From: Xylographa opegraphella | Lineage: Eukaryota | Reading direction: 5' to 3' | Length of the DNA stretch: 64,000 nucleotides | Assembly: GCA_022813865.1 (NCBI GenBank) | Contig: JALDZX010000013.1 | Location: forward strand, 62,001 to 126,000 | Shown: positions 2,920 through 40,795 of the stretch, in pieces | Position numbering within the stretch: position 1 is the first letter of the stretch | Layout: every line of letters begins with the position of its first letter | Made by a program: the position numbers and the translations under genes | The notes under the pieces: model-generated | Told to the model about the DNA's origin: nothing | The model's database searches: none | The model's input: only the letters and a program-made list of their open reading frames with translations

Positions 2920-2926
2920 CCGGCCT

Positions 2927-6947: not shown

Positions 6948-7048
6948 AAGCTTCAATGACCTCAGGTCTGCATCAACGGGGTTTATACTCAAAGAGAAAA
7001 CGAGCCACTCATCTTGAGTCATCACCAATCGTTGCTAAGATGTCGTTT

Positions 7049-16418: not shown

Positions 16419-18196
16419 CATGGCTACTCGGATCACGGACTATCCGTTCGAGGCAGCGACAAAGCTCGAGTCTCGGCGAAACTGGTAAACCTGTGGGGTT
16501 TAGGACCCCTGTTTGAAGAAATCACGAAGGAGATGGCGATGAAAGTTGGATTAAGGATATAATTAGCACAACAATGGGATAGTATCCAAGGCTGAGGGAC
16601 AGTGGTATCCTGGCATAGCAAAGGATAGATGTAACAACGCTTTCACGGTCCATAATTCTCGAATTGAAGTAGCTGTTACGAAGTCAGTGACATTGTGATG
16701 GTATTATGCTTCAATATCAGCACTAAGTAAACCGTTCTCTAAAATCTAGCAACGCAGTCGAGCATAAAGGTGATGATGGATGGCGGAGGCGTTTGAGCGT
16801 GCCTGACGGACGACCGTCTCCATCGAGGCTTATTAGCCAGCGTTAGGAGCAATATGATGGGTAGACCAACTCCATATTGAACGACATTGAGAAGTGAACT
16901 ACAAATACGTGATTGTCCTCTCTCGTGTGAGGTGGTTTAAGACGTCAAGTCGCTAGCCAGGACAGGCTAACTATTTCGGGCGTAGATCAAGGGCTCCCGC
17001 TCGGCTGAATTCAATTTTCGGAATTAAGAATAGTCCGAGCGGGACGGCATGTTCTGAGGCTGGATGAGGTTAGAAGCACGGCTCCGACCTCAGCCAGCCT
17101 CGCCAGCCAGCCTCCCTGTCACTTCCTCCACCACTTCTGTATAGTCGGAATTCAGCTATCCACTTCCTGCCACTTGTCTCTCCCCACGTTGATCTCGAAG
17201 GAATGTGTGCCCAGACTGACCCGCTGAGTGGGGCTCGACCCCACCAGTAAGAAGGCTAAGGTCTTACAGATACTGGCCGATGGTCCATGAAGCTAGCACA
17301 GCGTCGCCATGGCCACGATCATTGTTCGGTACCGCTGGACGCCGCTGGGCCGCCGGCTTCTACACCCTAGGTGGCCTAGATCTGCTGGTGGCTAGCTGAG
17401 TAACAGCGATTCGAATCCCGTTCCGGCGTCGCAGTCGTGCGGCCTCAGTGCTAAGGAGCGCCTCGTCTCTACCTGGGCGGAAGTTCGTCGCCAACGGGCT
17501 GTCAAGCTCGCAGGTCCGTGGTCTAGATCTGCGCCGGACCAACTGAAAGTCATGGTGCATCCGAAAATGGGAGGGTGAAAGATCCGGGCGGTTATGGCAT
17601 GCAAGCCATGACATGCAAGCTACAATAATGTGCGAGCCCCATGCAACGTATATCAATATGGCAGCTATAATATGCAAACCTACAACACACTAACATGGCT
17701 GGCTGAATCGGCTGGTCGGTATACACCTTCCTGCTGTTATCACATCTCGACATCACACTCCAAGATGCTCCGCAGTCCACTACTTTCAGGAGGCCTCGCA
17801 GACGGGTGGATATGGATCTAATATACTCGTATGTTGCTCCGGCAGACGTGCGATTGGCTTTCAGTCGCGAATGGTTGACTGACTGGACAGGTGTGCTCGT
17901 CGACCAAAAATGAAGAAACAGCAAGACCGGAAGTCTCATTCCAAGCCAGTCTGGAGCGCTCCACTGGAATGTGCCACCTCCCACACTTATAAGTGCCACT
18001 TCTGAACAGTGTTCTGTTTTGGAGCTATCTAGACTTGAAAGTTACCATGGCTCGATTCGATAGTCTCCTGCACACTGATCACGTACTTCCATTCCTCGAA
18101 TACTTAAAGCCACTGGATCCCCCGTGCAGTTTGCAGATGGACTTCTAAGCATTAGAGATTATCCTATTCGATCGAGGTACTGGAAACTATTTTGCA

Positions 18197-20631
18197 ATGG
18201 CAACTCAAGACAGCGGCCCGATTATTCTGACACCAGGTGAGGTCTTGGGTAAGGCAGAGCCGGTGATGGGCGGTGATGTGAGTAGCTGGCCAGAAGACCC
18301 AGCGGAAGTGCCTATGGCGATGTGGGATAGTGGCGTGTTTATCACGGAATTGATCAACCTGAATCTGAGCCCCAAAAAGATTCAGATTGCGAAGCTCGGC
18401 GAGCGGGAGCAGGAAGATTTCAATGCCAATCCTGAGGCGCTGCTGGCCATAGTATCGGTGCCACCGCAGCTTAAGGAAGGCACGTATCGAGGCACGCAGC
18501 TTGCGCTCACGAAGATGTATGAGCTTGTTGAGTCCAAGTAAGCTGTCCAGCCGCTCGGACATGGCCCGAACTAACCGAGTCAACGTAGCTATAAGTCATA
18601 TATGGATGCTGCCAATTTTGAGCCTACCGTTCCTTCGCCGCTACCTGTAGAGAAGAAACGCGAATTCTTCTCATTTACGTGTCCGAATCTGGAGGACCCG
18701 TTAGCGGACAACTTTCCACCGCACCTAAATCTTGCTGCCAACAAAGATTGGTCGAAGAGAGCAGAGTCCAGCAAGGAGACGATAGATTCCAATCAAAATG
18801 CATTTTTGAAACCAACGGACCTATTCAACAAAATGCGCGTGGCGCAACTAGCTCAGCTACTACCGGCGCTCATTCCGGATACATTCTTGGGTCATGTTGA
18901 AGCTGCGCTGGGCGTAGCTGCGGCGAACCTCAAATTCGGTGCGATAGGTCGTCCGGATGCTGGAAAAACTATCCATGATGTCGAACAATATCAACGCAAG
19001 GAGCGGGGCAAGAAGTATATCTGGCAGAAGAATGACATCTTCAACCTACCCAACGTGGGTGATCTGCCCGACTGGTACAGTGATGAACGCTTTGCTCAAC
19101 AATTCTTCACCGGCACAAACCCAACCACGATCGAGCCTGCTTCGGATTTCTGGATTCAGCATTTCCTCAGTGCTTCGCAGCCCGAGGATCAGAAAATGCG
19201 GGCCAAGATCGAAAAGCTGTCCCAGGAGGCTCGTGGCAGCCTGTACATGCAAGACTATAGTTACTTCCGAGAGGCTGCTGGGATCCCGCCCTCAGAGGTC
19301 ATTTCATGCGAATACGAGTATGTGGAGGAGGACAAGAAAGTCAAGGGTACCCGTTATGGCGTTGCTGCTGTATGCCTCTTCCACCTGAACGAGGAGAATG
19401 GAAAACTAGCGCCCCTGGCCATTGTGTGTGACTGGCGTGGGAGCAAAGACAATTCGGTGACAATCTACAATCAGGAGCCGCCCCGGAGCACGAGTGAGCA
19501 GGCAGTCGACTGGCCTTGGCGATATGGTAAGTCTCCTAATCTTCCTGCTATCCGACTAACATATGAGCAGCCAAAACTTGTGTGCAAACCTCAGATTGGC
19601 TTCGCCACGAGGTGACAGTCCATTTGACAAACACCCATTTGATCGAAGAAGCCACTATCGTCGGCGCCCAGCGATCGTTCCCAGACACGCACATGGTCTT
19701 TCAATTATTGTACCCACACTGGCAGAAAACACTTGCGCTGAACGCAGCCGCGCGGGCGACCCTGGTGCCGCATGTCATCAATGAGCTGCTCCCCTTTACC
19801 AAGGACCAATCGACGCTTTTCACGCTACATGCGTTCAATTCATTCGACTTTAAAGGTCGCTATGCTCCCGAGGACCTGCGTCGGCGGGGATTTCCACCGG
19901 AGACGTTGGATCAACCGCGAAGCCGCAACTACGCGTGGGCGCGCTGTATCCATAGCATGTGGGGCAAGATCCGACGTTATGTGGCCGGCATGCTGGATCT
20001 AGCCTACCCGGGACCCGACGCCGATCAGAAGGTTGCGGCCGACGGTTGCGTTCGCGACTGGTCCGAGATCATGCAGAAGGATCCCTCACCCGCGGGCGAC
20101 GGCGGCGCCGGCCTCAAGTCCTTCCCGACCATCCGCACGCTGGATCAGCTGATCGACGCCGTCACCATGTGCATCCACCTCGCCTCGCCGCAGCACACAT
20201 CCATCAACTACCTGCAGAACTACTACCAAGCCTTCGTGATCAACAAGCCGCCGTGCCTGTACCGGCCGCCGCCCACGTCGCTCGCGGAACTGCGCGCATT
20301 CAAGGAGAAGCAGCTCGTGCTCACGCTGCCGATCAACCACCCGAAGGAGTGGCTGCTCGCCAGCCACATCTCCTACCTGCTCAGCTTCAAGCCCGGCGAC
20401 AAGGAGAGCCTGATCTCGTACGCCTGCTCCAAGTACCAGGTCTACATGGGCAAACGTCGCGATAAGAGTAAGAATGCGCCTGAGATCGCTACCGTGGCGC
20501 GCCGCTTCTACAATGAGCTGAGGGCGTCGGAGGCGGAGTTTAAACGGTACGGGCAGGATACGTTCGACGCCGGTGTTATTACGTATGATGTGCTGAGTCC
20601 GAGCTGGAATGCGGTTAGTATCTTGATTTAG
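18197..20631 (+). CDS. intracellular iron-type lipoxygenase (about 779 aa)
   Basis: Exons 18197-18537, 18589-19526, 19571-20631 join in frame. DWYSDERFAQQFFTGTNP, WRYAKTCVQTSDWLRHEVTVHLTNTHLIEE (HX4H ligands), QHTSIN (His/Asn ligands), and a C-terminal Ile ligand (AVSILI*). No signal peptide. Confidence 0.93.
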
Positions 20632-21426
20632 TTTCGGGGTTTGCATGGGATGCAGTTGAGGGTTTGGAGTACCGGCAGCAGTGAGGGTTATGGGGTCCCA
20701 GGGCTCTTCAGTGAGCAGTATGTCCCGGCTGTAAGAGGCTCGTTGGCGTTATACGGGACCGGCAACGAGATAGAACAGATGCACCAGATACCCCCAAACC
20801 CTCTCCCAGTGTGCATACGAATGAAAACGACAAACCCCCTTTCAGCCAGGCTGCTGTCACATTCCGTCCGCTCTACCAATGTAGATGGATTGAAAAACAA
20901 CAACAACAAAAAAACCCCGCCCAACCTCATATTACCTTTGCACTGGAACATTCCCTACCGGCATCGAAACGCCATTCCTAACATCACTGGATGGATCCTT
21001 GCGGCGGTGTGGCGGTAAGTGGGAATAAAAGACCGGAGGGGTTAAAGAAGAGAGAGGGGCGTTGTTACAAGCACGCTCACAGATCCTGTAGGGGGGATGA
21101 AAGGCAGGGGGGAGGGGAAAGGGGAAGGAAGGCCCGAAGGGGGCAGGATGTCGAAAGTGGTGAGTGTAGGACAAGGCGAGCGGGCAACATAGAGATATGG
21201 CTCTTGAGCGATGTATACATTCTCCCCGTATCTCTATCAACAGCATCTATGCAAACCCGGGGAACGAAATCAAGAGACTAAATGAACAGCGCAGTCGCGA
21301 AGATACACACAACAAAACAGACCCATATTCCCTCCCTCTATGTATATACCCATATATCCACCCATATATCAAATTTCCCATCCCAATCCCCAATTCCAAG
21401 CCCAACCCGCTTCTTCCCTTTCCCAT

Positions 21427-24400
21427 CTACTTCGCCTCCCCCTCCTGCGCCCCACTCGCCGCGGCAGCGCCCTCCTTGCCGACAACGTCCCACGGCACAT
21501 AGGAGCTCTTGCTGGCGATCTTCAGCGCCAGCTGACTGATCGGCACCTTGCTCAGAATATCGAAAACGCTAACCTGGCTCTTAAGCTCCTTGAAGATCCA
21601 ATTGCGAATCTCGATCGCGACAAGGGAGTCGACGCCGTAGGAGTAGACCGCTTTGTGGGTATCGATATCCTCGACCGCGATGGCGAGCGACTTGCTCAGT
21701 TTGAGCGCGAGGCCCCCCTCGACCAGCTCGGCCGCGTGCGCGAGCGAGGTCGCGGCCGTGAGCGCGCCCTTGAGCTCCGAGGCCGAGTCCTCGTTCGTCT
21801 GCTGCACGCCCTTGACGTCCAGCCGGCGCAGGTAGTGGTACTTGGGGTCGTCGTAGATGTTCGTCGTCTTGAGGTGCTCCATCTGCTGGCCCATGCCGCC
21901 CGTGCCCGCGCCCGTGACCATCTGCGTCGGGAAGGGGAAGTCCTGCTCCGAGTAGCCCGTCAGCGCCGACTCGATGAGCGAAAAGAGCTCCGCCGGCTGC
22001 AGCGACATGCGCGCGAAGTCGGCCTGCATCTCGGGCGCGATGTTCATGTTCTCCGCCATCCAGCCGACGCCGGAGATGGCGCCGAGGTCGAGCGCGCAGG
22101 CGGGGAGGCCGAGCGACTTGCGGTAGTGCGCGAGGCCATCCTGGTAGGTGTTGCCGGCCGCGTAGTTGCTCTGGGAGCCGTTGCCGCTGATGCCGGAGAC
22201 GGAGGACAGCATGACGAAGAAGTCGAGGTCCTTGGGCGCGAGCTCGTGGAGGTTCCAGCTGCCTTGGATTTTAGGCCGTGTCGTGGCGACCCAGGACTCG
22301 TACGTCATGTCTTCGAAGTATTTGTCGTTGAGGACCATGGCTGCTTGGATGACACCTCGGACTCGTGGCATTTGGGCGGCCATCTTGGAGAAGGTTGCCT
22401 TGACGGCAGCGGCATCGGTGACATCGCAGGCGTACGGCACAATGTCGATACCCATGTTCTTCAACTCATTGATGGCTTCTTTGACCCCGGCACCGGAGTC
22501 ACCTGAACGTGACATGAAAGCGAGATGTCGGGCTCCGTGGTCCATGAGGAAGACTGCGAGCGCGCGGCCTATACCTCCTGTTCCGCCAACGACAACGTAG
22601 GTAGCCTTGCCATCCAGATTCAACGGGTGAGGGTTGCGAGGTATGACGGGGACCATGTCATCAGGGTTAGCTTTCAGCACGATCTTGCCCATGTGCTTGG
22701 CCTGTTGCATGAGTCTAAAAGCCTTCTCGATTTCCGAGTATTTGTAGACGGTGATCGGCTTTACCAGGCCCACAGAACCCGATCGAATCAGATCAAAGAC
22801 ATTCTTGAAAACTTTCGCCATCATCTTGGTATTGTTGCGGGCCATGTGCTATGGTAGTGTTAGGACGGCTTTCATCAGGATGCTCCAAGAATTCAACTGA
22901 CCTCGATATTGACACCTCCGAAAGTGACGTTTCGTAAGAACGGACCCATTTCCAGGCCACTGTTAGCCAGAATATCTTTCTTTCCGACTTCGATGAAACG
23001 GCCATAGGATGAGGTACACTCCCAAGTCTTCCGCAACGCCTCTCCGGCAAGAGAGTTGAGGACCACATCAACACCTTTGCCGTTTGTCATGCGCATGATA
23101 CCCTGAGCGAACGCCACGTCACGCGAGTTGAAGATGTGGTCGGCAGGAATACCGTATTCTTCCATCAGTAGCTGACGCTTCTCCGCTGAACCAGCGGTAA
23201 CAAATATCTCAGCACCGATATGTTTCGCCAGCATGATGGCAGCTTGTCCAAGACCTGTCGTAAATGTTAGTCCAAATTGCTCAGTAAACTCATCGGCCTC
23301 CCTGGCCGTGATAATGCTAAAATTGTTGTATATCAGATGCAAAGCATGACTTACCACCTGCAGCACTGTGAATGAGAATGGTCTCTCCCTCTGAGAGTCG
23401 TCCGATCTCTACCAAGCCCTGGTAAGCAGTGATATATACGCACGGTAAAGTTGCACCCTCCTCTATGCTCATATCGGCTGGCAGAAGCTGAACGAGAGTC
23501 TCCTGAGTCCGCAGTAGATTGCAATAAGCACCAAGGTACATGGTAGCAACTCGGTCGCCAGGCTTTACAAGTGTAACCTTCGAACCTACTCGCTTGATGG
23601 TACCGGCTGCGTCGGCACCGAGCACGGTATCAACGACGAGGCCCATACTGACCATGATATCACTGTCAAGGTGTCAGCGGAAATGCGAAGTTTCCATTGC
23701 TATCTTTACTTACACAAAGTTCATCGCATTGGCAAGCACCTCGATTTCAACCTCGTTGTCACCCAAGGGCTCCAGTGGCCGTGGGTCGTCGACGAAGTGT
23801 AACGTATCGAGCATTCCAGGATTACCAATATCGAGACGGAGAGGCCGGCCTGGTTGTGAAAACGGCTGTAATTCAGGCATGGCCTGCTCGTCGAGAGTTT
23901 GTAGGGCATGATTCTTGTGTTTCTCATCAAAGAGACGCGGAATGTAGAGTTGACCATTGAGCTCCGAAATTTCGGTCTCAAGATTGGCTTCGTCAGCATC
24001 GTAGATCGAATAGAAGACCCTTCTGATCAGATCAGCAGCCGATGCACTGGATAGCTTCATTTGCGTCGAGAAATTGAGCTCGTGCATTCGAATGTGAGGC
24101 ATTTCACATCTCACTACACGCAACATGCCAGTAGTGGCGCAGAAAGATGGGTCTCCAGAGGGATCCAGTTGGCGGCCGCCTCGTGAGATCCATAGTCCTC
24201 CTAGACTTCGAAGAAGTACCGTGTGCATCGAATTGAAGTTTTCCTTCGTGATGTCGATAAGAAGAGGATCCTCCGCTTCTATCAGTGATACAACGCCTTT
24301 TCCAGCTACAAAGGGCTCTTCGTTAGCGCCAGTAGCTGCTGCACCCTCCAAAGTTGTGTGCTCGATTTCAAGACCAAGATCTGACAATGCCTTTAAGACA

Positions 24401-27400
24401 TTTGCGGCCATGGATTCAGTTTCGGTGGAAGTCTTCAGTGCGTCGATTACTACTACCTTGGTAAAAGGGAATTTCGTAACCTTCGGCTTAGATGAGACCA
24501 TCATGGAGGAGCAATGATTTCCGGCATCAGGGGTATCTTTGATCATAAGATCAAGCCCGCTGAAGCCTGCAGCAAGCAAGGAGCTCTTCCAGTCTTCCTC
24601 ATTCATCAATGGTCCTCCCGTTCGGCCATCTTCTGATTGCCACCAGCTGGGAAGTGTCCCCAGTACGAAGCTGATACGATCTAGAGGGTGCGTGTATTCC
24701 GTAAGAACAAGTTTGCCTCCAGGTTTCAGAAGTTTGTAGCAGTGACTCAAGCTAACGCTCAAGTCTTTGCATCCATGTAGAGTCTACATTACAAAATGAA
24801 TTAGCATCACAGTTCTGGGTACCGTCGACCAGAAGTACTCACATTAGCGGCGATGATGACCTCAAACGAGGCCTCCTCAAAGCCTTGAGCGATAGGGTCG
24901 CTCTCAATGTCAAGCTTTTTGTACTGGACATGACTTTGCCAGGCCTTAAGCAGCTTCTGTGCATCATCGATACATTCTTGATCGCTATCGGAAAAGACAT
25001 ACTCTTTGAATAAAGGAGTCGATCCGTAACGTCCACCTAGAGTCTCAAGAGCTGGCAAGGTGACTTGTCCTAGACCAGCACCAATCTCGAGAATTTTATA
25101 GTCTGGTCGTTTATGTCCCTGCAGGTCTAGCCATTTTGTGACCATGATATTGGAGGGGTCGCTGGCCAAGTAATCGTAAAGCTTGTTATCTTCCATCATA
25201 GTTGGCAGAGGAGGAATACTTCCATCAAGGATTCCGGGGAGGCTTTCACCAACAGTACATATCAATCGGGCTTCAGTATGAGATCCGGCAACCTCAGCTA
25301 AGAAAGCAGCCTCATCTTGTGTTGTTCCATCCGGCTCAACTTGTCCCACACGGCCGCGCATCCACTCGACATAGCGGGCTAGGTGAGGCAATAGTGCAGC
25401 TTCCTTCTCAGGAGTGAGGCCGGCTACCGTGCGTCGCATATAGATCGCAGCCGCCTTCTCACAGGCGGCTGTACGCTCTGGGCTGACCGCCTCCGCAGGA
25501 ACGAAAAGCTTTTCTGCTTCATCTTGGCGCACAAAATCAATATCTTCTTTCCAGACAAATTGAGAGCAGATTTTTCTTATCGCTGTCTGCTCCTTGCTAG
25601 CAGTGACCTCTTGCGTTAACAAATCCAGCTCCGTGCAGCCAATTCCAGTCACCACAATTTTTGGCTCATTCCATGTCTCATCACTCATAACAATGGTCCC
25701 TGCAAAATTCCGGAATCCCTTGCGCTGGACTTTGGTGAACCCGTGAAATTCAGCACCAGGACCTTTTGGTAGATGGGCAGAAACCTTGATAGAGTCAATT
25801 GAAGTAGGCAACATTGCCTGCTGAGAGCCCTGTGCTCCTGTAAAGAAACTCTGAAAGAGACCGTCAAGTGTAACTGGATGGAGAAGATGATCGTACTCAA
25901 ATTGGGCCGGCATGGAAGCCTTAGTGTCTTGAACTGTAATCGTACAACAACCGATGCCGTCGCCATTTGTTCTGATTTTGGTAATAGGTTGAAATAGTGG
26001 ACCTATTGAAGATCAGTTTCAAATTTCTTGGTTGATGTTCGCCACGAGTATTTATGGTGGTCTTACCATATTGAACACCTCGAGCATACCACTTTTCGTA
26101 GAAGTCCTTGGTCTTAACATGCTTCTTGCAAGCAAGCTTAGCGTCTGCATATTCTTGCTTGTAGCTGTTCCACTCCGCATCTGCCTCCATGACTTCTTCG
26201 CTGCGTTCGGATTCTGACACATATTGGATCTTGATTAACCCGGAACAGTGTTCCACATGCTCAAAATTATTGTTCTCAGAATAGACTGTGAACTCGTACC
26301 AAGGTTTCTCATGGCCTTTGATACCGATCTTCCGTGGCTTGAGATGTAAGAGCATCGAGATTTTCTCCTCGGGCGGAATCACAAAAGCCCGGCTAAGAAT
26401 GATGTCTCGGTATTCGTAGCTGTGAACCGTCTTGTCCTCATCAACCAGTTGCTGAACAGCTTCCAGAGCCGCACAGAGCATGCCGGCGGCAGGAAAGAGA
26501 ATATCACCTTGTACCTTGTGATCAGCGACCCACGGGATCTCAGACTGCCTGATCGCATTAGTCCATCGAGGCTCAAGAATGTTGAAATCGTCAACTCTTT
26601 TTCCAACAAGATCGAGACGCGGTGTTTTGGCGAAGCGATGGTTGTTACTTAGTGATGTTTCATGCCAGAATTTGTTGGAATGACTTATATAGTTAGCAAT
26701 GACATGAGCTGAATTGGATATAATCAGGACTCACTTCCAAGAATAGCCAGGCAGATCGTGCAAAGCGAGTAGCGGCTTCGGTCCAGCTTCAATGCTGTTC
26801 ACATTGAGCATATTGAGCGGCTGGCCCATAGTCCAAAGTTTTCCTACTGCTTCCAAGGATGTAGTAACAGCGTCTTGACCACGATGAAGTACGGAGAGAT
26901 ATGTTGTATCTTCAGATCTACCGTTTGCTGCCAGAATCTGTTTCAGAGGACCTTGAAGCGCACTGTGAGGTCCGACCTCTAGAAGCGTATCAATAGCCAG
27001 GCCCTCCCGTCGTCGACGGCGGGCTCCAGATGGTGGTGCAGATATTAATGAGCCAACAGCTTTGACGAATTGGACAGGCGAAACCATGTTCTTTACCCAA
27101 TATGACGCATCCAGATCAGAAGAGGCCACTTGGGAACCAGTCACGGAAGAGAACATTACGGCTCCTGATTTGGGTTTCAAAGTTGTGATGTCCTTAATTG
27201 ACTCATGGTAGTCATCGGCAATGAGCTTCATGTGAGGACTATGGTAGGCATTTTCAACCTTCAGGCGTCTGGCAAACAAATTTGCGGGTTTCAAAAGACT
27301 CTCGAGTTTTTCCAGCGCTGTGATGTCTCCTGAGATTGTAACATTGGAGGGGCTGTTTACGCAAGCAACCACTGCGGTATCCGAAGGCGGAAGTTGAGCT

Positions 27401-30400
27401 AGGTATGGCTGAACATCACTCTCTGAGAGACCTACAGCCATCATAGACCCTTTGACATGCGGTGCAATATCCTTAATAGCATGCGAGAGTCGTCCTCTGT
27501 GGTAAGCAACCTTGAAACAATCTTCGGCAGAAAGAGCTCCGGCTGCATATGCGGCAGCTAAGATAATATCTGTCAGCACGGTACAAGCAGCGGAATTGTG
27601 GGTAACTAACCGATTTCGCCACTGGAATGTCCTGTCACGGCTGCGGGCTTCATTCCCCAATGTTCAAGCAGATTTACGAGCGCAATTTGCAAAATGACAC
27701 AGAGGGGCTGCGAAAATTTGGCCAGAGAAATCTGTGAATCTTCCTCGCGTGCCTTCAACTCCCTTAGAACACTCCATTCAGCTCCAAGAGCAGTCAGGTG
27801 TGCATCAGCCTCTTCGACAGTTCGACGGAAGACCTCATAAGCCAGTAGCTCTCGTCCCATTGCATGCCACTGTGCTCCTTGACCTGTAAAGATAAAAACT
27901 GTCTTCGGAGCTTTCCCAGCGCGATTTGCTTTGATACGATCACCAAAAACAGTGGCCAAGTCGTTTATTGAAGAAGCGACGCCGATGGCTCTCCACGCGA
28001 AGGAAGTCCGTCTATTACCAAGCGTGAAGGCGAGATTGGCAAGAAATTCATTGGCCGCTTGGGTGTCCTTAACAGACTTATCGGTGAGATGATCTGCATA
28101 AAGTTTTACCAAACTCTGCAGTGTACTTTGCTCGTGCGAGGACAATACGAACAGCCGCGGACGTCGGCCAGCAGGCGATGGGAAGTACTCTGAATCTTCA
28201 CTGGCCGGACTAGTAGTCATAGTGCCATGACCAGAATCCGTGTCTTCAGCAGAATCTGGATAGAGAAGTGCAGCCTCGGGAACACTGGTGGTCTTGCCAT
28301 GTAGACCTCGTGACTTCAGGTAATTATATGCATCGTCGACAATGCAATGAGCATTGCTACCACCATAGCCAAACGAGTTGATTGAGGCTCGCCGAACGCC
28401 GGTCGTTGGCCAGGGAGTGAGCTCTGTGGGTACCTTGAGACTCCACTCATCTAGTCGCAGACGCGGATTCGGTTTTTCGTAATTTAAACTTGGAACAATG
28501 ACAGCGTTTTCAAGGCAGAGAACTGTCTTCAACAAACCAGCGAGGCCGGCACACCCCTCCAGATGGCCAATATTGGTTTTGACGGAGCCAACGTAGAGAG
28601 GTTGTCCAGCCTGTCGTTTGGTGGTGCCAAGTGTGGCACCTAGAGCTCCAAGCTCAAGAGGATCTCCAACCGGTGTTCCTGTGCCGTGGGCTTCGAAATA
28701 TTGGGTCTTGGAATAGTCGAGCCCAGCAGCCTTGTAGGTTGAACGTATCAAAGACGCTTGAGCGTCCGAACTCGGTTGAACGATCCCAGGGGTTTTCCCT
28801 TTACGAATAATACATTAGTCAAGTCATACCAAACCAGGAAGGTGAAATACGTACCATCTTGGTTGGTACCGGTCCCTCTGATGACGGCGCGAATGGTATC
28901 CCCATCACGGACGGCATCCTCCAGAGACTTTAAAATCATAACGCAACCACCCTCGCCACGCGAATAGCCATTCGCACGTTCATCAAACCTAACACTGATT
29001 AGTAACTGGCCTTGGTGACATGAGTAAGTGGTTCTCACGAGAAGCATCTACTATCCGGAGAGAGGAAATGCAACGACGAGAGGGATGACATCATGTCAGG
29101 GATCAATATTAGCTGGGAGGCAGCTATTAGAGAAACTTTGCTCTCGCCAGTGCGAATAGACTGACATCCAAGGTGGCTGAGAGATGTTAGGATGAAGCTA
29201 GTTTCTGTGCGGGCGGACATAAAATACTAACAGTGCAATAAGTCCGCTTGAGCAAGCCGTATCGAGGGTCATTGACGGGCCATTGAGGTCGAAGAAATGA
29301 GAGAGCCGATTGGAAAGCATAGCATTGCCGCCTCCAATAGCCTGGTAGAGAGGCACATCATCTGATCTCCCAATCAGCATATAAATCGCGGACATCAATG
29401 ATAGACGCCCTTACCAATATCTCTCCCAGCCACAGCATTATAATCTATGAAGCGTTAGTATTATATAGTCAGATGTGGCGCACACGGTACAGTGTCGCGC
29501 AGTGTGAGCATTGTGATTATATATGATACACTGAAATGAATCTTAAAGACAACAAGGGTACTAAAGAATGTCAAGGTATAATGAAGAGGGTTCGCGTATT
29601 CATTGCCGACGTAAGAAGTTAAATTCGTATCATATTGTACAGGCTCCGAATAGAGGAAGAGTGTCTTAGCGAGAATGTACTAAATGGATTTTGTACCTGC
29701 ACTAGAGCAGCCAACGTAGCACGACGTGTTACTGCCAACAAACTTCTCCATGGGAATTCCGCCTAAATTAATGTCAGATACGAAGAACGGAACGTGATGG
29801 GGTCGACTGACCGCTTTCCATGCTCTCAAATGCTACCTCGAGCAACATTCTCAATTGGGGATCCGTAGCTGTGGCTTCAGCTGCAGACATAGAGACTAGA
29901 AATTGTCAATGAGGCGATTTCATTCGCCCAATAAAATAAGCAGCTTACAGAACTTATCAGATGTCAGCTAAGATATTTGAGGCTTGATTCATAGCGCAGA
30001 CTTACAGGAGCATCGAACAGACCCACGTCTCCTTTCATAAAATGCCCTCCTTTTGCTGTCATGGTGCCTGACCGAGGATTACTGGGATGCCAATAGGCGT
30101 CCACATTGAATCTGTCCTTGGGTACTTCGGACCATGCAGAACGCCCTTTGGAGAGCATCTCGAAGAACTTGGAAGGGGATGTGGCATCTCCAGGAAATCG
30201 GCAGCCCATGGCCACAATAGCGATTCTAATGGGCAAATTTCAAGTCAGCGTTTGACTACGCTTAGGGGCTCAAAATTCAGTGAGTTTTCTCCGGATCCTA
30301 TCCAGCTTCCAGGATAAGTCCGGAGTGCCGGTCCAATCCGCAAACTCCTATCCCCAAGCTGAAACCAGAACCCGAACGAAACAGGAGCGAGAAAAATACA

Positions 30401-30462
30401 TACGGGGCGTTGTCATCTTTCTCCACTGGGGCACTTGGGCCCTGCGGATCGATGAAGGGCAT
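21427..30462 (-). CDS. highly reducing iterative type I polyketide synthase KS-AT-DH-cMT-ER-KR-ACP
   Basis: About 17 exons. Start MPFIDPQGP... at 30462 splices to [66 protein letters not shown] and LDGLFQ. c[33 protein letters not shown] and SNYAAGN. ACP: GVDSLVA. No TE domain. Confidence 0.96.
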
Positions 30463-30940
30463 CTTGGGTGACGGATCTCAGCTTTTCAACTCTTCACCCG
30501 ATCACGACCCGTGTGAAAGCAGTTCCAGACGTCGGAGATGGTCGTGAGGATTGCAACAAGCCGTTCAGCATGATATTTGAGCTTGTGGCGATGGTAGTTG
30601 CTCTGGCCTTCCAATTGCGGACGTCCTTGCACGGTTCCTCGCTGCTTCTTAAGCTCCTTCTCCAGACACAAAGCGGCCGATGGTGGTGCGCCCAGCGTCA
30701 CTCGAAAGCGCCACATTGCGATATCTGCTAAGCTGAAAGCCGACACTTGGTCCGTCCGACTTTGGATGAATGGGGCGGCGTCGAAAGCTTCATAACCAGC
30801 ATCCATGGTTTCATCCATAGCTTTGGACTGATGGAGGAATATGTGTTGTGGTAATTGCATATCCGCACGCACAGGCACGGCGAATATCTTGCACGAGCTG
30901 TCCCCACAACGGAGGTTGAGGCTGGCGGCTGCGCATTGGC

Positions 30941-31016
30941 CGGAGCGTAAGCGAAGATAAGGTACAAGCGCGCATCGTTACCGAAGGCAGCGAGGATCGG
31001 CGCGGTGTAACATTGC
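30941..31016. promoter_or_regulatory. candidate cluster-regulator sites in the PKS/hydrolase divergent promoter
   Basis: CGGAGCGTAAGCGAAGATAAGGTACAA (30941-30967) and GCGGTGTAACATTGC (31002-31016, within CGG-N10-CCG). Both recur in the MFS/TF promoter. Confidence 0.5.
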
Positions 31017-31276
31017 CGGGACTGCTGCATGAGCGAAAGGGGGAATTCTCCATGCCTTGACATCACCTCGCAGCGTCGGGGAAAACGCGCTGGGAGTTGA
31101 ATCATCATCATGTAGCATGACTCCAGGGCTTGCATATAAGCCGCCATGGCGTTCTGGTGGAGACGCCTTTTTGATAGTTCTCCTTCTACCAAAACTCTAA
31201 ACTCGGTCGTTATAGCTCAAGATTCACAGCAAGCAGCGTCGACGTCGAGCATTAAGTTGGTCTACTACACACAGCT

Positions 31277-32288
31277 ATGAAGTTCCTCTGTCTCCACGGG
31301 TACGAAGACTGCCGACCTCTCCCTCAGGCGCCTTGAACTGACATTGGACTCCCAGAAAAGGCACCAGTGCCGAAATCTTTGAAATGCAAACTGGTGCGGC
31401 ATGCCCGTTCTTCTCTCAACTTCATGAAGCTGACACCGTTGCAGAAGGGTTTCGCAACCTTCTTCCGGAGCATTTCAGCTATGAATTCCTCGAGGGCGAG
31501 AAGGAGGTTTCGCCAGCGCCTGGAGTCGACAAGGTCTTCCCGGGCCCTTACCTGAGCTATCTCACCGATTATTCTGTTGGTTCCATCGAGGAGCAGCACC
31601 AGTACATCATGGACGTCGTCGCCGAAGAAGGTAAGACACTCCTGAGTGCACCTTGTCACCGTCAAGCTTCTGACGGAGAGTAGGACCATTTGATGGCATT
31701 ATGGGATTCAGTCAAGTAAGTCTGGTCCCCTTTGCTTCAGTAGTACAGCACTGACAACGAGAAACAGGGCGCTTCACTGGCAGCTTCAAGTACGTTGAGT
31801 GTGATGATTGAAGTTCCTCCCGCATACTGATGCTTCGTCTTGTAGTATTGCTGCACCATCAAATAGAGAAGCCTTGGTTGCCACCGCCTTTCCGAGTGGC
31901 CATCTTTCTCTGTGCAACATATGCTCACTCTCGTACTGTTGTGGACGGAGAGGATGTCACACACAAAGTTCCAACGAGTGAGCTACCTAGCCGAAGAACA
32001 AGTACCGATTCTGGATATTCTTCCGAGGAAGACTCGGCGAAAGACTCCATTCGAGTTTTGTATGCCAATTCGACAAAGGCCAGAATTCAAATTCCCACCG
32101 CTCACCTCTATGGAGAAAATGACGAATATTTACATGAGAGTTTAGAGGTTTTGGACCTGTGTGACCCACGTCTGGCGCTTGAATTCAAGCACAGGGGTGG
32201 ACATGAAGTTCCGATGGACACGGTAACCAACAAAAAGATTCACGACATTATAGCGACAACTTGTGAAAGGGGAGAGACATTTTCGTGA
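31277..32288 (+). CDS. FSH1/LovG-type serine hydrolase (trans-acting thioesterase/esterase), about 247 aa
   Basis: Six exons (31277-31299, 31356-31393, 31445-31630, 31684-31715, 31768-31789, 31846-32288) give MKFLCLHGKGTSAEIF...GPFDGIMGFSQGASLAA...IPTAHLYGEND...GGHEVP, an intact Ser-Asp-His triad. Divergent from the PKS. Confidence 0.9.
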
Positions 32289-32628
32289 CGACGGAAATAG
32301 AGGTATTACAAATATATTATAGACATTAATCTTGTAATTACATCTGAGAGAACTTTCATCATTCGTAAGGCAACGACATATTGTGCAGTGAAGATGACTA
32401 TTTTCGAATATTGCGACTGGGTAGTAACAAGCTGCCTGCATCAACAACCTGATGCATTTTTCTGTTTGGTAAAAATCTTACTGACAAACCCAGAAGCACG
32501 CTTTGACTCAATTCTAAGCTTTCGTTGAGCTCACTATCACATAAATCAAGTGCTGACAAAAGACTACTCCTGCTGCATATGCCTATTGATTGTTCAGTGT
32601 TGAATTTGGAGTTGCATACCCCTCATTA

Positions 32629-34927
32629 CTACGCATCTGCTTCAGCCAAGGTGATCCTACCGGCAAGTAGTGCCTCGCCTCGCGCTTTCCTCTTCATGAT
32701 ATCCGTCGGATGCCTGGAATATGTGAAGAGGCTAATGACCACACAAGCAGCAGCAACGTACGTGCAGTCGCGTAGTTGATCATTAAATGACTTTGCAAAC
32801 GTCTGAGCTACCGCAAGCTGCTGCGCCGGTTCGAGCGACGGAATATAGTTCAACGACTGTCGTAATTGTACAAGCTGAGCTTCACTGAGAATGCCCTGTA
32901 GTTCGTTGACAAGTCTGATGTTGAGGATGATCGTGGAGGCCGCCAGTCCAACGGTGCCGCCGAATATACGTGCCTGATTGACCGCTCCCAGGGCGATCGC
33001 TATATGACGTTAGAATACCTTTCATTAAAAAAGCTAGCAGCACCAGGAAAATATCCACATACAGTAATCTGCAAATTTTGATTCTGTGGAGGCTATGATT
33101 GTCACTGTGGTGAAGGTCATCCCCAAACCAAGACCGAAAATCACCTGGAAACCGTACAGCGCTGGTTCGATATCGAGTCCATCCGAGGCCGTAGACAGAA
33201 GCGCACATCCAACCACCATCAAACAGCTCGCTACAAGCAAAGTGACAAACGTTCGGTTTTTGCGGCTCGAGCAGAGACCACCAAATGTTGACCCGAAAGC
33301 GCTTGCAAAGAGTAAGGGCATCATACGGACACCAGCACTGGTAGCACCGTCTCCATTGACGATCTGATACCTTTCAGGTAGAGCGATAATCGTGAGAAAT
33401 AACGGGAAACCAGTGAATAAAGTGCTCCTACCGAGGAGATGAAGATAAGCATAGGACGTCCAAAACTTGGTCATGAGCCTTACAAGATTGCAGCAGCAAT
33501 TATCCTATGTGTTAGAAGGCGAACGGGTAATATCGGAGTTATTGGAATTATGCCAGCGTTCAAAACCATGATCCACACAATGAGGCAAAGAAAGCAAATC
33601 CCTGAGATAGACAAAGTCGAGATGATGACTGGTGAATTCCAGGATTCCTTCGCCGCTCCCGCCTCCTCAAGAGCGATAATGAGGAGGACTGAAGAGATGA
33701 CAATCAGAAATGCTCCAACGAAGTCGACGTGGCCAAGCAAGGCCATCCCAAGCGTATGCTTGGTCAACCCCGGAGGCGGCTGTGGACTTGGCCAGGTCAG
33801 CAGGATCGTGAGTAACGCAACGACACCGCATGGTACATTGAGCAGAAAGATCCATCTCCACGTGCTCCGTTCTGAGATTACTCCACCTGGTCACGATGTC
33901 AACTAATTTGATAAATTCCCATCCATCAATGGTTCAGCAAACCTAGTACAGGACCAAGAACTGAAGAGATGGCGAAAACAACCCCCGTAGCTGCGCTCAT
34001 GGTCTGTATTCGTGTGAGCTTCATTCTGATACCAAGGCACCACGTTACTTTACCGCGAAATGCTTGCTCGGGGTTATCTCGGGAATAACTGCGAGCCTTA
34101 GCGAATCTGCCCCACAAAGTATTAGATTTCTCAACGTACCGACGTTACAGAGCGAGTAGAGGCCTGAGCCTCCGATCCCTTGCAGCGCTCGAAAGACAAT
34201 CAGCTGCTCCAACGAAGTCGCCAATCCACAACCCAAGGAGAAGGCTGTGAACAAGCTCCAAGCCGCGAGAACCATCTGCGACCATCAGACAAATGCCGCC
34301 TGTTGATCACTGTTAGGAGAACAAATACCCATTTTCGGCCCAGAACATCGCTCAGCCGTGCCCATAGCAGCGAGAAGGCTATATAGTGTGAGCTAAGAGA
34401 TAACGCCGCCGCCAGGAAGAAATATCCCACCCATGTAGGCCAGTAGGTAGGCAAGCACCACCCATATCGACTGCTAGATGTTTGGCATTGTCACGATCGG
34501 AGGAGGGGGGTAGCATACGTCGAAGAAGTCATTGAAGTAGTCTTCGATATTGACCAAAGCTGTCGCAACAATCGAAGAGTCCACGATACTCAACAAAAGC
34601 CCCAGACACAGACTGAGTGCGTGCGACATCAGTGGCAAGCCGATGACATAAGCAGCGGTCTTACCAGGCTTCCACCACGACCAAGCGCCAGCCAGTCAAA
34701 CGCTTGAATGGCGATGCGTCCGGAGGCACGTCGGGAGCAGCATTGGGGCTCGGAGAGCTTGCCACCGACAAGGGTGTGTCTGCAGGACTCGTCGATGGTA
34801 ATCCCGAACCTTCTTCGATTTTGGGGTCATCGGGTCGATACGCTGAGCTTTCATGCATGCTCGCTGTCGAGCGATGGATATCCCCTAAAGCTTGGGGGTG
34901 CGGCGCCTCCTGGAGAGGAGTGGACAT
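32629..34927 (-). CDS. MFS drug:H+ antiporter-type efflux transporter (DHA2/14-TM-like)
   Basis: Multi-exon. LLSIVDSSIVATAL, WARLSDVLGRK (motif A), LIVFRALQGIGGSG, SSVLGPVLG, WRWIFLLNVP, and many hydrophobic segments. Confidence 0.9.
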
Positions 34928-35535
34928 GGTGTACGAGCGGGACAAAGAGACAGGACATTCGATATGCCTCGCAATGGACGAGTGTTCCTGCTATAGTAGT
35001 CTTTCTGTGCTCTTTCCTCTCGCGCCCGGTATCATGGTGGAAAGAGAGGATCGATCGACAACGAATAATTCCCCAACAACTGGAAGGACTTGTCTGGTCG
35101 GACGTGAAACAAAGCCCCATTGGGCATGGCATGCTGTCGACCGAGCCCGACGCGTATCACCCCATCGGGTCAAGTGGCCTGAGGTGATTGTCATGTCCAA
35201 CATGCATGTTGCTGGGAGCTGATAGCCCTGCGTTTCGCAGATATGAACCTGGGCTATTTTGAGTATATGCTCCTTAGCGGACCGAACAGAGCAATGTTGC
35301 ATTCTCTGCCTAATGACGCAAATGGCTTGCTCTCAGCGGCTCCGCGACCCGCACCTATCCTCAACGGACGAGTGGGTCTCGTGTCTGCAGACCACGGAGA
35401 GCAGCCTTGCTGTGAGAATGCTACGATACGAAGCTTTTTCCAGAGGCGGGGCGTGGCTTGTGCGAGGAGGTGGTGAAAGCCGAAGTTCGCGAGATTGAGC
35501 AACGAAGGTTTGGTGAAGCGACTGAAGCAAGCAAG

Positions 35536-35619
35536 CGGAGCGTGCGACGCCGAGGTACAAAACTCACAGAAAGTTAAAGCACGCGAGAGCCGACGGATGC
35601 GGAGCCATGTTACTCCGCA
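35536..35619. promoter_or_regulatory. candidate cluster-regulator sites in the MFS/TF divergent promoter
   Basis: CGGAGCGTGCGACGCCGAGGTACAA (35536-35560) and the palindrome TGCGGAG-CCATGTTA-CTCCGCA (35598-35619, CGG-N12-CCG), matching the motifs at 30941-31016. Confidence 0.5.
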
Positions 35620-36997
35620 ATTAGTGCGCCCGTGCTGCTGAGGGTGTGGCGTTTGCGTGGCGCATGCGTGGCGTTGAGCGCGCATGACAGGCTCGCTTAC
35701 GGCGGGAAAGTCCGTCGATCGCCCATCCGGCTGCAGTTCCAGCTGGAGGCACCCATTGTTAAGCACCTATTGGAACTTTCAACCGCCCCCCCTGTTGCCT
35801 GCCCAGAGGGTTTCCCCCCCCGGAGTTTTCGGGCGGCATTTCCATCCTTTTGAAGCTTCTTAGGGCTTGATCTACGCGACATCCACAAACTCATTCCTTC
35901 GCCCCCGCTCAATATTGAAGTATAGAGGACTCTCACCAGTAACGTCCGACAGACGAAAATCACTGGCATGAGCTGCTCTTTCTCTCTCACAACACCTCCA
36001 CCACCTCGGCCTTGACTTAGTTGGGCATACTTGGCGACCGTATCGTGGTCGGGTCTGGCAATTGGTGCGGCAAAGCCAGGTCGTCACGATCCAGTCGCGT
36101 GGTGGGCACGACTCGAGAAGCACATAGTATTGGTGTTGTCGTCCTTTTGTTGACCCACTCACATTCTAATATGCGGGGAATCAGACAGCCCCCGGGGATC
36201 GATGGCAGGCAATCAAGTGGGTGGCAGCAATCGGACCCACGGGCCCACGAGGATGGGAGTGGACGCAGACATGCTAACACGCGGCCAACACCAGACGAAA
36301 CACACCCTCAGCACGGACAAATCATCTCTGCATCAAAGACTACGGCTCATGGACCAGGGGTGGATTCGACAGATCTACGACGGAGCGGAAACCATGGCCT
36401 GTCAAACGTGCATGTCAGCCACAATTCGCAATAAACAAGGAGGTGCAGCGGCCGCTGCGACAGGACGTCCATTTCCGCTCTCGGCCGTGCGAGCGAAGGA
36501 TTGCGGTACCAGTGCTGCACCACGACAAGTGATTGGGATTTGATCGTCAACGTTGGCCGCGGGATCTACCATGCCACTAATGCGCATGATTCGCTCTCTT
36601 CTCCAACGTGGGAAGGCGCCCATGATCTCTATCTTCCTTATCTACAACTCTATTCTTCCATACCAAGCTCGGTACACGCGGCTGGATCCGGAAGTGTTGG
36701 GGTGGTGCAGCGCTCTGGTTGGGGGACGAGACAAGCGAAACGATACCATGGAAATGGTCAGCATCCTGCACAACCTCCTGCACAACCCGATTGAGGCTTG
36801 CTGGACTGAATGCGACAGCAAAGCTTTCTCTTTATACCTTGCAGGATAGGGCTACGAAGGCCTTCGCGTGTTGGGTTTCGGTCACCGCTATTCAAGAAGG
36901 AATGGCCGCCCTTGCTTCTGACTTTCCCCCGTCTGTTGCACATTACTTTATTTTTGCAAGAGCATCCTTGACATCTGGTATACTGGCTCCGTGAACG

Positions 36998-38350
36998 ATG
37001 CAGGCAAACACTCGACCCGTTGCGCAAGCCTGCACGTACTGTCATTCTCGGAAGATCAAATGTGTGCCTACCGAGGACTCGGGATGTCAGGCCTGCGAGA
37101 GCAATAACATCCAATGCCGTCTACGCCATCCGAAGAAGCTGGGCCGGCCGAAAGGAGGTCCATATTACTCTTTTCCAGTATGCTCAGAACATAACGCTAG
37201 TCATTCCAAGCGGCCGACCCGGTCAAGTCACCAGACTGGTAAGCCGTTGTCATTTCATCAAGTTTTTGTGTGCGGGCGACCACCGTTCCCGCATTCTGAG
37301 ACCCTGATCACCCTGATGCTTGTCGGTTGATTAGAAGCTAAGTGATGCATCGATCCAGAAACTGCATCCTCATCACCCTCGGACAATATAGCTTCCAGAT
37401 TTCATCAGCTGGGAGCAGCTTCCTCCAACCTCGGGGATTCTTTCGTTCTTTCCTTTGCCTCGACTACTGCACAAATCCAGGCCGTCCCCAAATCCTTTAA
37501 CCTGTCCGGCTCCAAGACCTGGTACGACCTTCCGCAGCAGAGCAATGGGCACTTCCCTCCGCCCGACTCCGCCTTCGACCACTCGGAAACAACATCTCCG
37601 CAGAGCGAAGTCCCCGTCATGTCCAGTGCGGCCGATTCGTCCGTGTTCTCAACACCGCCCTTGGCTTTCAACGACCTGTTTCCAAACACCCCGCTGGACG
37701 ACGGCATGTCCATTGAGGAAACCGATTCCACCTTCCTCTCCCTCTTCAACCTGTACTTGGAGTCCCACAACGCATTGACGGAGATACGATCGGGGCTGCA
37801 GCAAGTGACTATTTCAGATTTGAAAGACGGCCGTGGCGTCATGGGGATAGTTATCAAAATTAGCGACCTCGGTAATACAATGGTACGGAATCACAACGCG
37901 GCGAACCCATCGCTCCCTACACCAACGAACAATCTCCTCTTTTCATTTATAGCCATCTTGAAGGGCTGTGAACTAGCCGAGCAGATCTCCTCCATCATCC
38001 TGTCCCCCACGCGCTCGCCCACGCGCTCGGATTCGGCAGACTTCTGCACAATGACACCCATGTACCCTAGCAAGCCCATGGCACCCTCGATCGACGACTA
38101 CTCGTGGACAACGTGCTCGCTCGTGACCGAGCATCCCGAGCTGTCGGTGGAGCAGATCACGGCCCTGGTCAGATTGGACATCCACCTATCACACTTCAAC
38201 AACTTCATCTCCCTATTCGCCCACTTGGTCCCCGAGCAGGGGCAGGGCTTATCGGCCTCCTTTCTGGCGACCCAGTACCAGAGAAGACTATCACACTTGC
38301 ATAGCCACATAAGACTGGCTGTAGATTCGATCATACCTGCATGGGAATGA
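36998..38350 (+). CDS. Zn(II)2Cys6 transcription factor, likely pathway-specific (about 410 aa)
   Basis: CTYCHSRKIKCVPTEDSGCQACESNNIQC followed by KKLGRPK. Intron 37239-37358 joins in frame to the ORF ending at 38350. Confidence 0.87.
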
Positions 38351-38834
38351 CCATAAAAATCCCCGAACGGATCGCGCGATCCATGGTCTGGTGTGCCGCA
38401 TCGCTTGCCGTTTCTTTACTTTTTTTTGGGCCCGCTCGGGCCGTTCCATGGGACCAGATTCGAGGACACCCAAAAAAAAGCCCACATCGTTTTTTCCTAC
38501 GCAACTCTTTCCTAATCGGGGGTTTCCCACTTATCAGACCTGGTACCACGACATCTCGCTACCCTACTTTTGCGCGGTTCCAGGAGGCCATCCTCGCTTT
38601 ATCAGGACGTCGACCCCATAATACAACCTTTACTCACAATTCTGGTCCACGACGACGTGGTACCCAGTCACAGAACGGCAACCGCTATCACATGCGTCGC
38701 TCTACCGATCGTACCTCTCGCCCGCGCCTGCAACGACGGTGACGTCCCATCCACTCCACCTCGACCTCCTGCAGGAGATTGTGACGGGCCCTCCGCTCTG
38801 CCTTGAGGACCGTGGAGACGGCGACGAGCCACGC

Positions 38835-38955
38835 CCTCCAGCAACGAGCCACTCCCTCCAACAATGACCCACTCCCCCCAACAACGACCCCCTCCATCCC
38901 GCAACGACCACCTCCATCCCGCAACGACCACCTCCCTCCACCAGCGAACCACCAT
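38835..38955 (+). repeat. imperfect ~20-bp C-rich tandem array
   Basis: CCTCCATCCCGCAACGACCA occurs twice perfectly (38891-38930), with degenerate copies on both sides. Confidence 0.75.
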
Positions 38956-39613
38956 CCCACCCCATCAACGCACCCGCCAATCCCGACCCCAGCTGCTGTC
39001 TCCCCGCCCTCCTCTCCACCGCCCGCAAGCCGCCCTCACCAACCATCGACAACCACACCAAGATCCCACCACCCCCCTCCAAAACCCTCACACCACCCAC
39101 CCACTACAACCCTTGCCTTCCGTACCGCCTTCCGGACCCGACCACCCTCACCTCCACCCCCCCTTCGGTTCCCGCGTTCAGCAAACCCGGTTTTCCCGTC
39201 GTGGAGGATACATAGATAGATCAGATAGATGGATAGACGAATGGATAAAGAACGGCTTCCCCCCCACCCTTAAGCGAGGAACACCACGTAAATCCCACGT
39301 GCTGCGAAACGTGCTTGCATGCTCATGAGCAGCCGTGATATTCCCCGTAGCCATCCATCCATCCATACATGCCATCCACCCACCCCTTAAAAATGCCGAA
39401 GCCGCCGCCCACCCTCCCATCCAAAAGCCGCGCAACGATCAACCAAAGCTATATTTCCATCCCGCAACCGAACCTCCGCCATCCTCCCTTATCTACCCTA
39501 GGCCTACCGGTAGTGTATCCCACCACAAAGCACAACCCGCACAACCCGCACAACAACGGAGGGTCATCATACGTCTATCTATCGTACAAGCAGCTGTCCA
39601 CTTTTCTCGTCCC

Positions 39614-39619
39614 NNNNNN
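39614..39619. other. assembly gap (6 N) inside a poly-C run
   Basis: cccNNNNNNcccccccccc. Confidence 0.99.
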
Positions 39620-39890
39620 CCCCCCCCCCTCATCGCGCGGCGGCCAATAATAATAATATGCCCCCAAAGCAGGTTTTTCTTCCCACAACCTCGCTTGGGA
39701 AAACCAACCTCGCCTCTTTTTTTGGGGGGCGTCGGAGAATTAATTTTTTTTTCTTAGGTCAGCACCTTATCTGGCCGTCGGACGGGAAGATCGTCGTTGC
39801 ACGGACCTTTTTTCCGCTGCGTTCCGGTGAGATGGTGTGTGATGCGGTTGCGATGCGATGAGATGCGATGTGTGCGATGAGATGTTGTCT

Positions 39891-39940
39891 GATGCGATGC
39901 GATGCGATGCGATGCGATGCGATGCGATGCGATGCGATGC
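39891..39940 (+). repeat. (GATGC)10 microsatellite within an imperfect GATGN tract (about 39841-39965)
   Basis: Read directly. Confidence 0.95.
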
Positions 39941-40795
39941 GAGGAGATGAGATGAGATGGGATGTGTGACGGACTGGATCTCTCTGTGGAACAGCGACGG
40001 GCACGATCTACGCGCTGCTGGGTTTTGTTTTTGCTACTTAGGAGTTGAGACGATTGAGACGAGATAGATCCGTGCTTGCGGGGCGGGTGGTACTGATACG
40101 GGTACGAAGGGGGGGCTTTGGATGGGGAGTGAGCAATGCACTTTTGTGGTTCTGGGCTACTGGGCGGGTTGGGCTTTTCTGGATGGGTTATTCGCTCTGA
40201 CTGAGCAGAGGCCGGACGCTTGGAGAGTGGAGTGGATAACATCTGCTCTTTGTTCCCCGTAAGGCAAGGACATACGTCCGCGATGAGCTGGTCCATCCTC
40301 TGCCGGTGTGACAGTCCATCGTCCGCGGTGTAACAGCCCATCGATCGCTGTGTAACAGTCGATGCGTCTCTTTGTTCCTCGCATGGCAAGGAGATCGTAC
40401 ACCGTGTGACAGATGCGCCTCCCTGTGACATGCATGCGCACGTCATGATCAGAATGGAGGATTGGAAAGCAGGGGTCATGGAGAGCAATAATCGACTGCT
40501 CGGACATTCCGATTTTCGTGGAACAGCGAGAGTATGTACAACAAATATTTTTCTGCTGTTGAGCTTCTGGCCAAAAGCTACTCGAATCCTGGGTTGTATA
40601 ACGACATCATCAGCCAAGTTGCCTGCAAGATGAGCTGCTGTTCGAAAATCACAGGGTCTCCCCCTTTTCTTACGAGTTTCGTCGAACCCCTTGCTTTGAT
40701 TGCGCCTGAGATGGCCTGGCATTTCTCGTGTTGCTGTTCGAATGGAATGTACATACGCCCCTGATAACAAACCAACACCAGGAATGAATGCATAT

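Follow-up and report, generated by a model that had tools for sequence, protein, structure and literature searches.

We analyzed a 64,000-nucleotide stretch of the lichen-forming fungus Xylographa opegraphella (GenBank assembly GCA_022813865.1, contig JALDZX010000013.1, positions 62,001 to 126,000 of the forward strand), referred to below as the window, in which a lipoxygenase (LOX) gene lies next to a gene for a highly reducing polyketide synthase (HR-PKS). All coordinates are those of the window. An earlier inspection of the letters alone, the sequence-only reading, had proposed that the LOX tailors the product of the HR-PKS. We examined the genes of this block, their relatives in other fungi, and the surroundings of related LOX genes. 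The identity of the host agreed with the genes found, as LOX exon 3 was 100% identical to a 779-amino acid protein of X. opegraphella. The genes of the block are intron-rich; their splice models were built by hand, and domains were assigned with Pfam on the open reading frames (ORFs) of individual exons.

Genes and borders of the locus

The LOX gene (18197..20631, + strand) consists of exons at 18197-18537, 18589-19526, and 19571-20631 and encodes 779 amino acids; the spliced model was letter-identical to the database protein of X. opegraphella (P0001). PF00305 matched exon 3 with an E value of 7.3e-30 and exon 2 weakly. The protein carries the motif WRYAK (in the context DWPWRYAKTC) and ends in SILI, that is, with a C-terminal Ile. 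Five columns (H439, H444, H635, N639, and I779), which we take to be the metal ligands by analogy with soybean LOX-1, were invariant in the 15 sequences aligned. WRYAK and the C-terminal Ile are marks of the fungal Ile-group LOXs, which are fatty-acid enzymes producing volatiles and oxylipins (PMC7482316). By domain, motif, and ligand set, the protein is an Ile-group (iron-type) lipoxygenase, and its substrates would most likely be linoleic-type acids, as they are for its relatives.

The HR-PKS gene lies convergent to the LOX gene at 30462..21427 (- strand), and the 795 bp between the two stop codons (20632..21426) leave the pair with no common promoter. Its 17 exons, joined across GT-AG introns, encode 2606 amino acids with no internal stops, and the product was 94.7% identical and colinear to the 2607-amino acid protein of X. 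soralifera (P0242). When that protein was used for tblastn, it covered the PKS region colinearly at 90-98% identity; the gene was also traced with a second query (P0244). Pfam domains followed on successive exons in the order KS-AT-DH-cMT-ER-KR-ACP. Active-site motifs, GVDSL among them, were found for every domain, and the GGLG motif of the ER looks intact. In the last exon, the ACP occupies residues 376-447 of 473, with no thioesterase (TE) or reductase (R) domain behind it. We had considered that the PKS might be a pseudogene, given that its parts lie in at least eight frames with an in-frame stop at 26731-26733. This candidate was dropped because all of the breaks fall in GT-AG introns.

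Two features of the N-terminal part of the PKS were observed in addition. Splicing is ambiguous at the junction 29949-29967 (- strand) near the KS N-terminus, where a 19-nt exon gives the insertion LTSDKF, as in X. soralifera, and a 4-nt micro-exon gives the canonical FDAPFFSMS, as in X. carneopallida; the frame is open either way. The database models from X. trunciseda (P0121), X. pallens (P0241), and X. parallela (P0243) begin with MVLKSL and are about 270 N-terminal residues short, the KS active-site Cys included. Because the window codes for the missing part (28855-30462) in nine short exons, these models are probably truncated annotations, and the genes themselves are probably not truncated.

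A serine hydrolase gene of the FSH1/LovG type (31277..32288, + strand) is divergent from the PKS gene across 814 bp (30463..31276). It has 6 exons and begins with MKFLCLHG; GFSQG, presumably the nucleophile motif, is split by an intron, and GGHEVP, presumably the catalytic His motif, lies near the C-terminus. PF03959 (FSH1) matched above the cut-off with an E value of 3.9e-10 on the last exon alone (profile positions 120-210 of 211), the N-terminal exons being too short to score. The next gene (34927..32629, - strand) has at least 7 exons, four of which gave ORFs with MFS_1 and TRI12 matches, and encodes a major facilitator superfamily (MFS) transporter of the TRI12/drug-antiporter type. The last gene of the block (36998..38350, + strand) encodes a Zn2Cys6 factor of approximately 410 amino acids (Zn_clus E value 1.2e-06), with its ATG at 36998 and its stop at 38350; the best model places an intron at 37239-37358. 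Several ORFs of 120-190 amino acids without a Pfam match lie in the 2.07 kb (34928-36997) that separate the MFS gene from the factor gene, which is divergent to it. Contigs of three sequencing runs were compared with the window; one set is probably the source assembly, and the other two, from distant organisms, matched in short conserved pieces only and carried no information on synteny. One such piece, with about 80% likeness in one of the distant runs, lies at 35498-35533 and may represent an unannotated small gene or a conserved element.

The PKS and hydrolase genes share the 814-bp divergent promoter, and the MFS and factor genes share the 2.07-kb one. The LOX gene has a separate upstream region beside decayed DNA. 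No motif common to the promoters of the block was found above background. The sequence TCGN4CGA has 2 sites in the 814-bp promoter, 2 in the 2.07-kb promoter, and none upstream of the LOX; with 27 sites in the 64 kb of the window, this distribution is unremarkable.

On the left, the block is bordered by decayed, ORF-poor DNA (10500..18100), which has lower GC content, lacks long ORFs, and holds one remnant of a Tf2-type retroelement. Beyond it, positions 1-10446 carry housekeeping genes for a WD40 protein, an SPB4-type DEAD-box helicase, pantoate-beta-alanine ligase, RNase P/MRP p29, and glycerol-3-phosphate acyltransferase (GPAT). On the right lies C-rich, low-complexity and tandem-repeat DNA (38350..39970) with an assembly gap of six N at 39614-39619. 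The sequence-only reading was therefore accurate in its description of the locus. Its five adjacent and intact genes all stand at the coordinates it gave with unbroken reading frames, namely an Fe-type LOX convergent with a TE-less HR-PKS at a distance of about 0.8 kb between stops, a LovG/FSH1 hydrolase divergent from the PKS, an MFS exporter, and a Zn2Cys6 factor, and both borders that it described, decayed DNA on the left and low-complexity DNA on the right, were seen.

Outside the block, the window holds an intact, multi-exon gene of the caleosin (peroxygenase) type at about 47221-48221 (+ strand). Its product has EF-hand-like and His motifs, and its distance to the LOX gene is 26.6 kb. 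Caleosins use fatty-acid hydroperoxides. A link between the LOX and this peroxygenase is conceivable; chance proximity is more likely.

The two genes within and beyond Xylographa

The LOX protein search returned 202 relatives at E ≤ 0.001, of which 120 were listed as matches. Relatives of the PKS were sought with the single KR-ACP exon, and a further search with the KS-AT exon yielded mostly multi-module bacterial PKSs, with 3 of the 150 matches listed being informative (P0402, P0471, and P0472). Within the genus, PKS and LOX carry consecutive locus tags in X. pallens (MMC27_002728 and MMC27_002729), X. soralifera (MMC17_004219 and MMC17_004218), X. parallela (MMC32_002456 and MMC32_002457), and X. 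carneopallida (MMC34_003824 and MMC34_003825). In each of these four species the LOX and PKS records sit on contigs of equal size, and a contig of 193,529 bases in ENA contains pieces of both genes. X. trunciseda has a PKS orthologue with 92% identity over the KR-ACP exon (P0121, MMC11_006596, MCJ1403373.1, on a 53.7-kb contig), and no LOX of this species was among the matches listed in either length class. This gap may reflect annotation, assembly, or real loss. Among congeners whose PKSs are 94-95% identical, a kept gene order is what plain synteny predicts, and the idea of a joint pathway gains little from it.

Metagenome contigs with a LOX alignment gave 64 LOX loci. Every stop-to-stop ORF of at least 60 amino acids in the window, 503 in total, served as a tblastn query against these loci (E ≤ 1e-6). 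The flanks reached at least 3 kb downstream at 35 loci, upstream at 33, on at least one side at 43, and on both sides at 25. Homologues of the PKS, hydrolase, MFS transporter, and factor were found in the flanks of none of the 64 loci, including the 35 with at least 3 kb downstream and the 25 with this reach on both sides. The window ORFs that did match belonged to the LOX region, to the DEAD-box helicase (at 3 loci, with 28% identity), and to an amino-acid permease (at 1 locus). None of the loci L001, L002, L039, and L063 has the left-flank genes of the window. The closest loci, L001 and L002, were about 70% identical to the window LOX by best segment and 82% over exon 3, and belong to the 90% cluster of the Cenococcum geophilum LOX. 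Unlike the window, these two contigs have no homologues of the PKS, hydrolase, MFS transporter, or factor beside the LOX. Biosynthetic domains were absent from the 10 kb on each side of the LOX at L002, and the flanks of L002, L039, and L063 held unrelated domains only (Asp f 4-like, HET, aconitase, phosphoenolpyruvate mutase, and permease). The conserved co-location that the sequence-only reading proposed as a check was found in part: it holds within the genus, for the window and four other Xylographa, and fails beyond the genus when approached from the LOX side, where none of 64 loci had a PKS.

The LOX of X. opegraphella shared 84.7-87.4% full-length identity with those of other Xylographa, 79.0% with a putative LOX of C. 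geophilum (P0545, OCK96606.1), 60.9% with Zymoseptoria, 59.6% with Aspergillus fumigatus, and 50.4% with Agyrium, a fellow Lecanoromycete. We take C. geophilum to be an ectomycorrhizal Dothideomycete and not a lichen fungus. In a tree of 56 LOX sequences, Cenococcum was sister to the Xylographa clade with SH-aLRT support of 100%; the path to Cenococcum was 0.29, compared to 0.14-0.19 within Xylographa. The stem specific to Xylographa was short (0.086), and therefore the LOX did not speed up after its arrival beside the PKS. Approximately unbiased (AU) tests on 37 sequences rejected the grouping of the Cenococcum LOX with other Dothideomycetes (p 2e-5) and that of the Xylographa LOX with Agyrium (p 8e-48). 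The conflict between this tree and the species tree suggests horizontal transfer of the LOX alone. Alternatively, it could stem from hidden paralogy combined with a slowed rate.

The PKS had different relatives. Its nearest relative outside Xylographa among the matches listed was a putative PKS of Nemania serpens (P0539, KAI1161753.1), with the same length of 2606 amino acids and 54.7% identity, followed by Flavoplaca at about 45%. PKSs are also on record from Nemania sp. NC0429 (KAI1109794.1) and, in Flavoplaca, under accessions such as KAL8843742.1 and KAI4276343.1. Nemania belongs to a fungal class other than that of Xylographa or that of Cenococcum. Within the genus, the LOX diverges approximately 3 times faster than the PKS (13-15% versus 5-6%). 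On these comparisons the LOX moved without the PKS, whichever the direction, and a close relative of it sits where no PKS is nearby. The LOX is a candidate for inter-class gene transfer, a side result that may deserve attention by itself: against the species tree, a lichen fungus and Cenococcum share it at 79%, compared to about 60% for other Dothideomycetes and for Eurotiomycetes and 50% for Agyrium.

Interpretation of the locus

Taken together, these data favor the reading, which we hold to be probable, that the locus is an HR-PKS cluster of four genes and that the LOX at its edge is a bystander, a fatty-acid enzyme standing on its own. By its gene content, the core block is of a familiar kind, in which an orphan HR-PKS is joined by a pump, a regulator, and a hydrolase of the LovG type. 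From family membership, the iterative PKS would make a reduced chain that may be C-methylated. As no release domain is present in the PKS, the hydrolase would free this chain as an acid, a role suggested by the promoter that it has in common with the PKS and by the lack of a TE. The MFS pump would then export the product, and the Zn2Cys6 factor would switch the genes on. The LOX would have arrived at or left the locus independently, probably by a horizontal transfer common to the Cenococcum lineage. It would lie in an accessory region scarred by transposons, where plain synteny keeps it beside the PKS within Xylographa.

Several observations weigh against a bystander LOX. Six Xylographa species have the PKS orthologue, and in 5 of them the LOX is its neighbor (the window, and four others by locus tags). 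The two genes are separated by only 795 bp, and decayed DNA lies between the LOX and the housekeeping genes. No domain of a cytochrome P450, flavin-containing monooxygenase (FMO), or other oxidase was found in the scanned ORFs of the block (all of at least 50 amino acids at 30.3-40 kb and selected ones of at least 100 amino acids at 18-30 kb), as the sequence-only reading had also stated. The LOX looks accessory rather than universal because it is patchy among Lecanoromycetes, of which only Xylographa and Agyrium were recognized in the 120 of 202 matches listed. Flanks are short at many of the metagenome loci, and the surroundings compared beyond the genus were those of LOX genes, not those of the PKS outgroup genes in Nemania and Flavoplaca. 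The groups for the AU tests were chosen post hoc, with the tree already seen. Finally, foreign genes are commonly recruited into clusters, so separate histories are compatible with a joint function.

The close spacing, the adjacency across five species, the lack of other oxidases, the decayed DNA that severs the LOX from the housekeeping genes, and the patchy occurrence of the LOX in lichen fungi among the matches listed all speak for the strongest rival. In this explanation, the acid set free by PKS and hydrolase is unsaturated, the LOX peroxidizes it, and the MFS transporter exports an oxylipin-like polyketide. A common pathway of LOX and PKS is possible; we nevertheless consider this explanation unlikely. 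No PKS neighbor was seen at any of the 64 LOX loci elsewhere, and the 79%-identical LOX of Cenococcum has no PKS beside it. The sister lineages and the rates of LOX and PKS differ, and X. trunciseda keeps the PKS orthologue with no LOX among the matches listed. The convergent layout provides no common promoter, and no common motif was found.

The chemistry also argues against tailoring. Lipoxygenases abstract hydrogen at the bis-allylic carbon of a cis,cis-1,4-pentadiene. The dehydratases of fungal HR-PKSs give trans alpha,beta-enoyl intermediates, and rounds left unreduced give conjugated trans olefins; these enzymes are not known to form the cis,cis-1,4-pentadiene required by a LOX. All of the reductive domains in the window PKS, including the ER, look active, which makes a largely saturated product likely. 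Given the apparently active ER, and with HR-PKS olefins being trans and conjugated, this PKS is not expected to supply a canonical LOX substrate. The proposal in the sequence-only reading that the LOX tailors the PKS product was not supported, given an adjacency confined to the genus, 0 of 64 LOX loci elsewhere with a PKS, and different sister lineages and rates for the two genes.

A more specific version is that a horizontally acquired LOX was recruited in the ancestor of Xylographa to an orphan HR-PKS cluster, where it would peroxidize the released polyketide acid. We regard this version as quite unlikely. If true, fungi would have a first lipoxygenase-tailored polyketide pathway, in a cluster built from genes of two different donor lineages. 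A LOX that tailored a polyketide would constitute a new class of oxidase for fungal polyketide biosynthesis and would hint at lichen metabolites that are peroxides or mimics of oxylipins. The evidence favors an ordinary cluster with a bystander LOX, and the locus is therefore, for now, not a priority as a new type of pathway.

The link between the genes could also be indirect, with an oxylipin or hydroperoxide that the LOX makes from an ordinary fatty acid serving as a starter, a partner acid, or a signal for the cluster, and selection keeping the genes together. We see little chance of this, although the adjacency is conserved across the genus and the caleosin-type peroxygenase gene lies 26.6 kb off. 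An acyl-CoA ligase, an acyltransferase, and a starter-unit domain are absent from the block, and the genes between LOX and caleosin are unrelated. Caleosins are, moreover, common single-copy genes in fungi, which counts against such a link. In its favor, fungal oxylipins affect development and secondary metabolism (PMC7482316).

It is equally improbable that the pairing is a recent and unstable accident at the level of the genus, with a decaying or dispensable LOX: its roughly threefold faster divergence and the lack of an X. trunciseda LOX among the matches listed would fit, but the LOX appears to be under purifying selection because it is full length in all five Xylographa species with a LOX (777-779 amino acids) and none of its metal-ligand columns varies among the three proteins aligned.

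Comparison with known systems

In the open-access literature, supplements aside, no LOX turned up as a member of a fungal PKS cluster, which is weak evidence of absence from print. The passages considered from PMC12010586, PMC8464941, PMC9569342, and PMC3694855 describe no LOX inside a fungal PKS cluster. LOX genes of Penicillium lie outside any biosynthetic operon (PMC8464941). The compound 6-pentyl-alpha-pyrone, earlier attributed to a LOX route, is made by a PKS, and deletion of lox1 was without effect (PMC12010586).

Among described enzymes, LoxA of A. fumigatus, PaLox1/2 of Podospora, Lox1 of Trichoderma atroviride, and the LOX of Fusarium oxysporum share with the window LOX the LOX domain, WRYAK, the C-terminal Ile, and the His/His/His/Asn/Ile ligands (PMC7482316, PMC5422543). 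The described members of the group use C18 or C20 polyunsaturated fatty acids; the activity of the window LOX is predicted. Unlike the described enzymes, the window LOX, 59.6% identical to the A. fumigatus protein (P0011), is encoded 795 bp from an HR-PKS.

The other four genes resemble the lovastatin-type system of Aspergillus terreus. Both have a TE-less HR-PKS ending in an ACP together with an FSH1-family serine hydrolase with a GxSxG motif (LovG in A. terreus), and both have a pathway transporter and a regulator. A LovG-like thioesterase is likewise part of the fusarielin cluster (PMC7870829, PMC6274466). The likeness of the window hydrolase to LovG is at the level of the family (FSH1). 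The window PKS was 37-41% identical, over the KR-ACP exon only, to proteins named lovastatin diketide synthase, FUB1, hmp8, azaB, and zearalenone synthase. In contrast to the lovastatin system, the window PKS has its own, seemingly intact ER (GGLG), and its block is without a trans-ER, an acyltransferase, or a P450.

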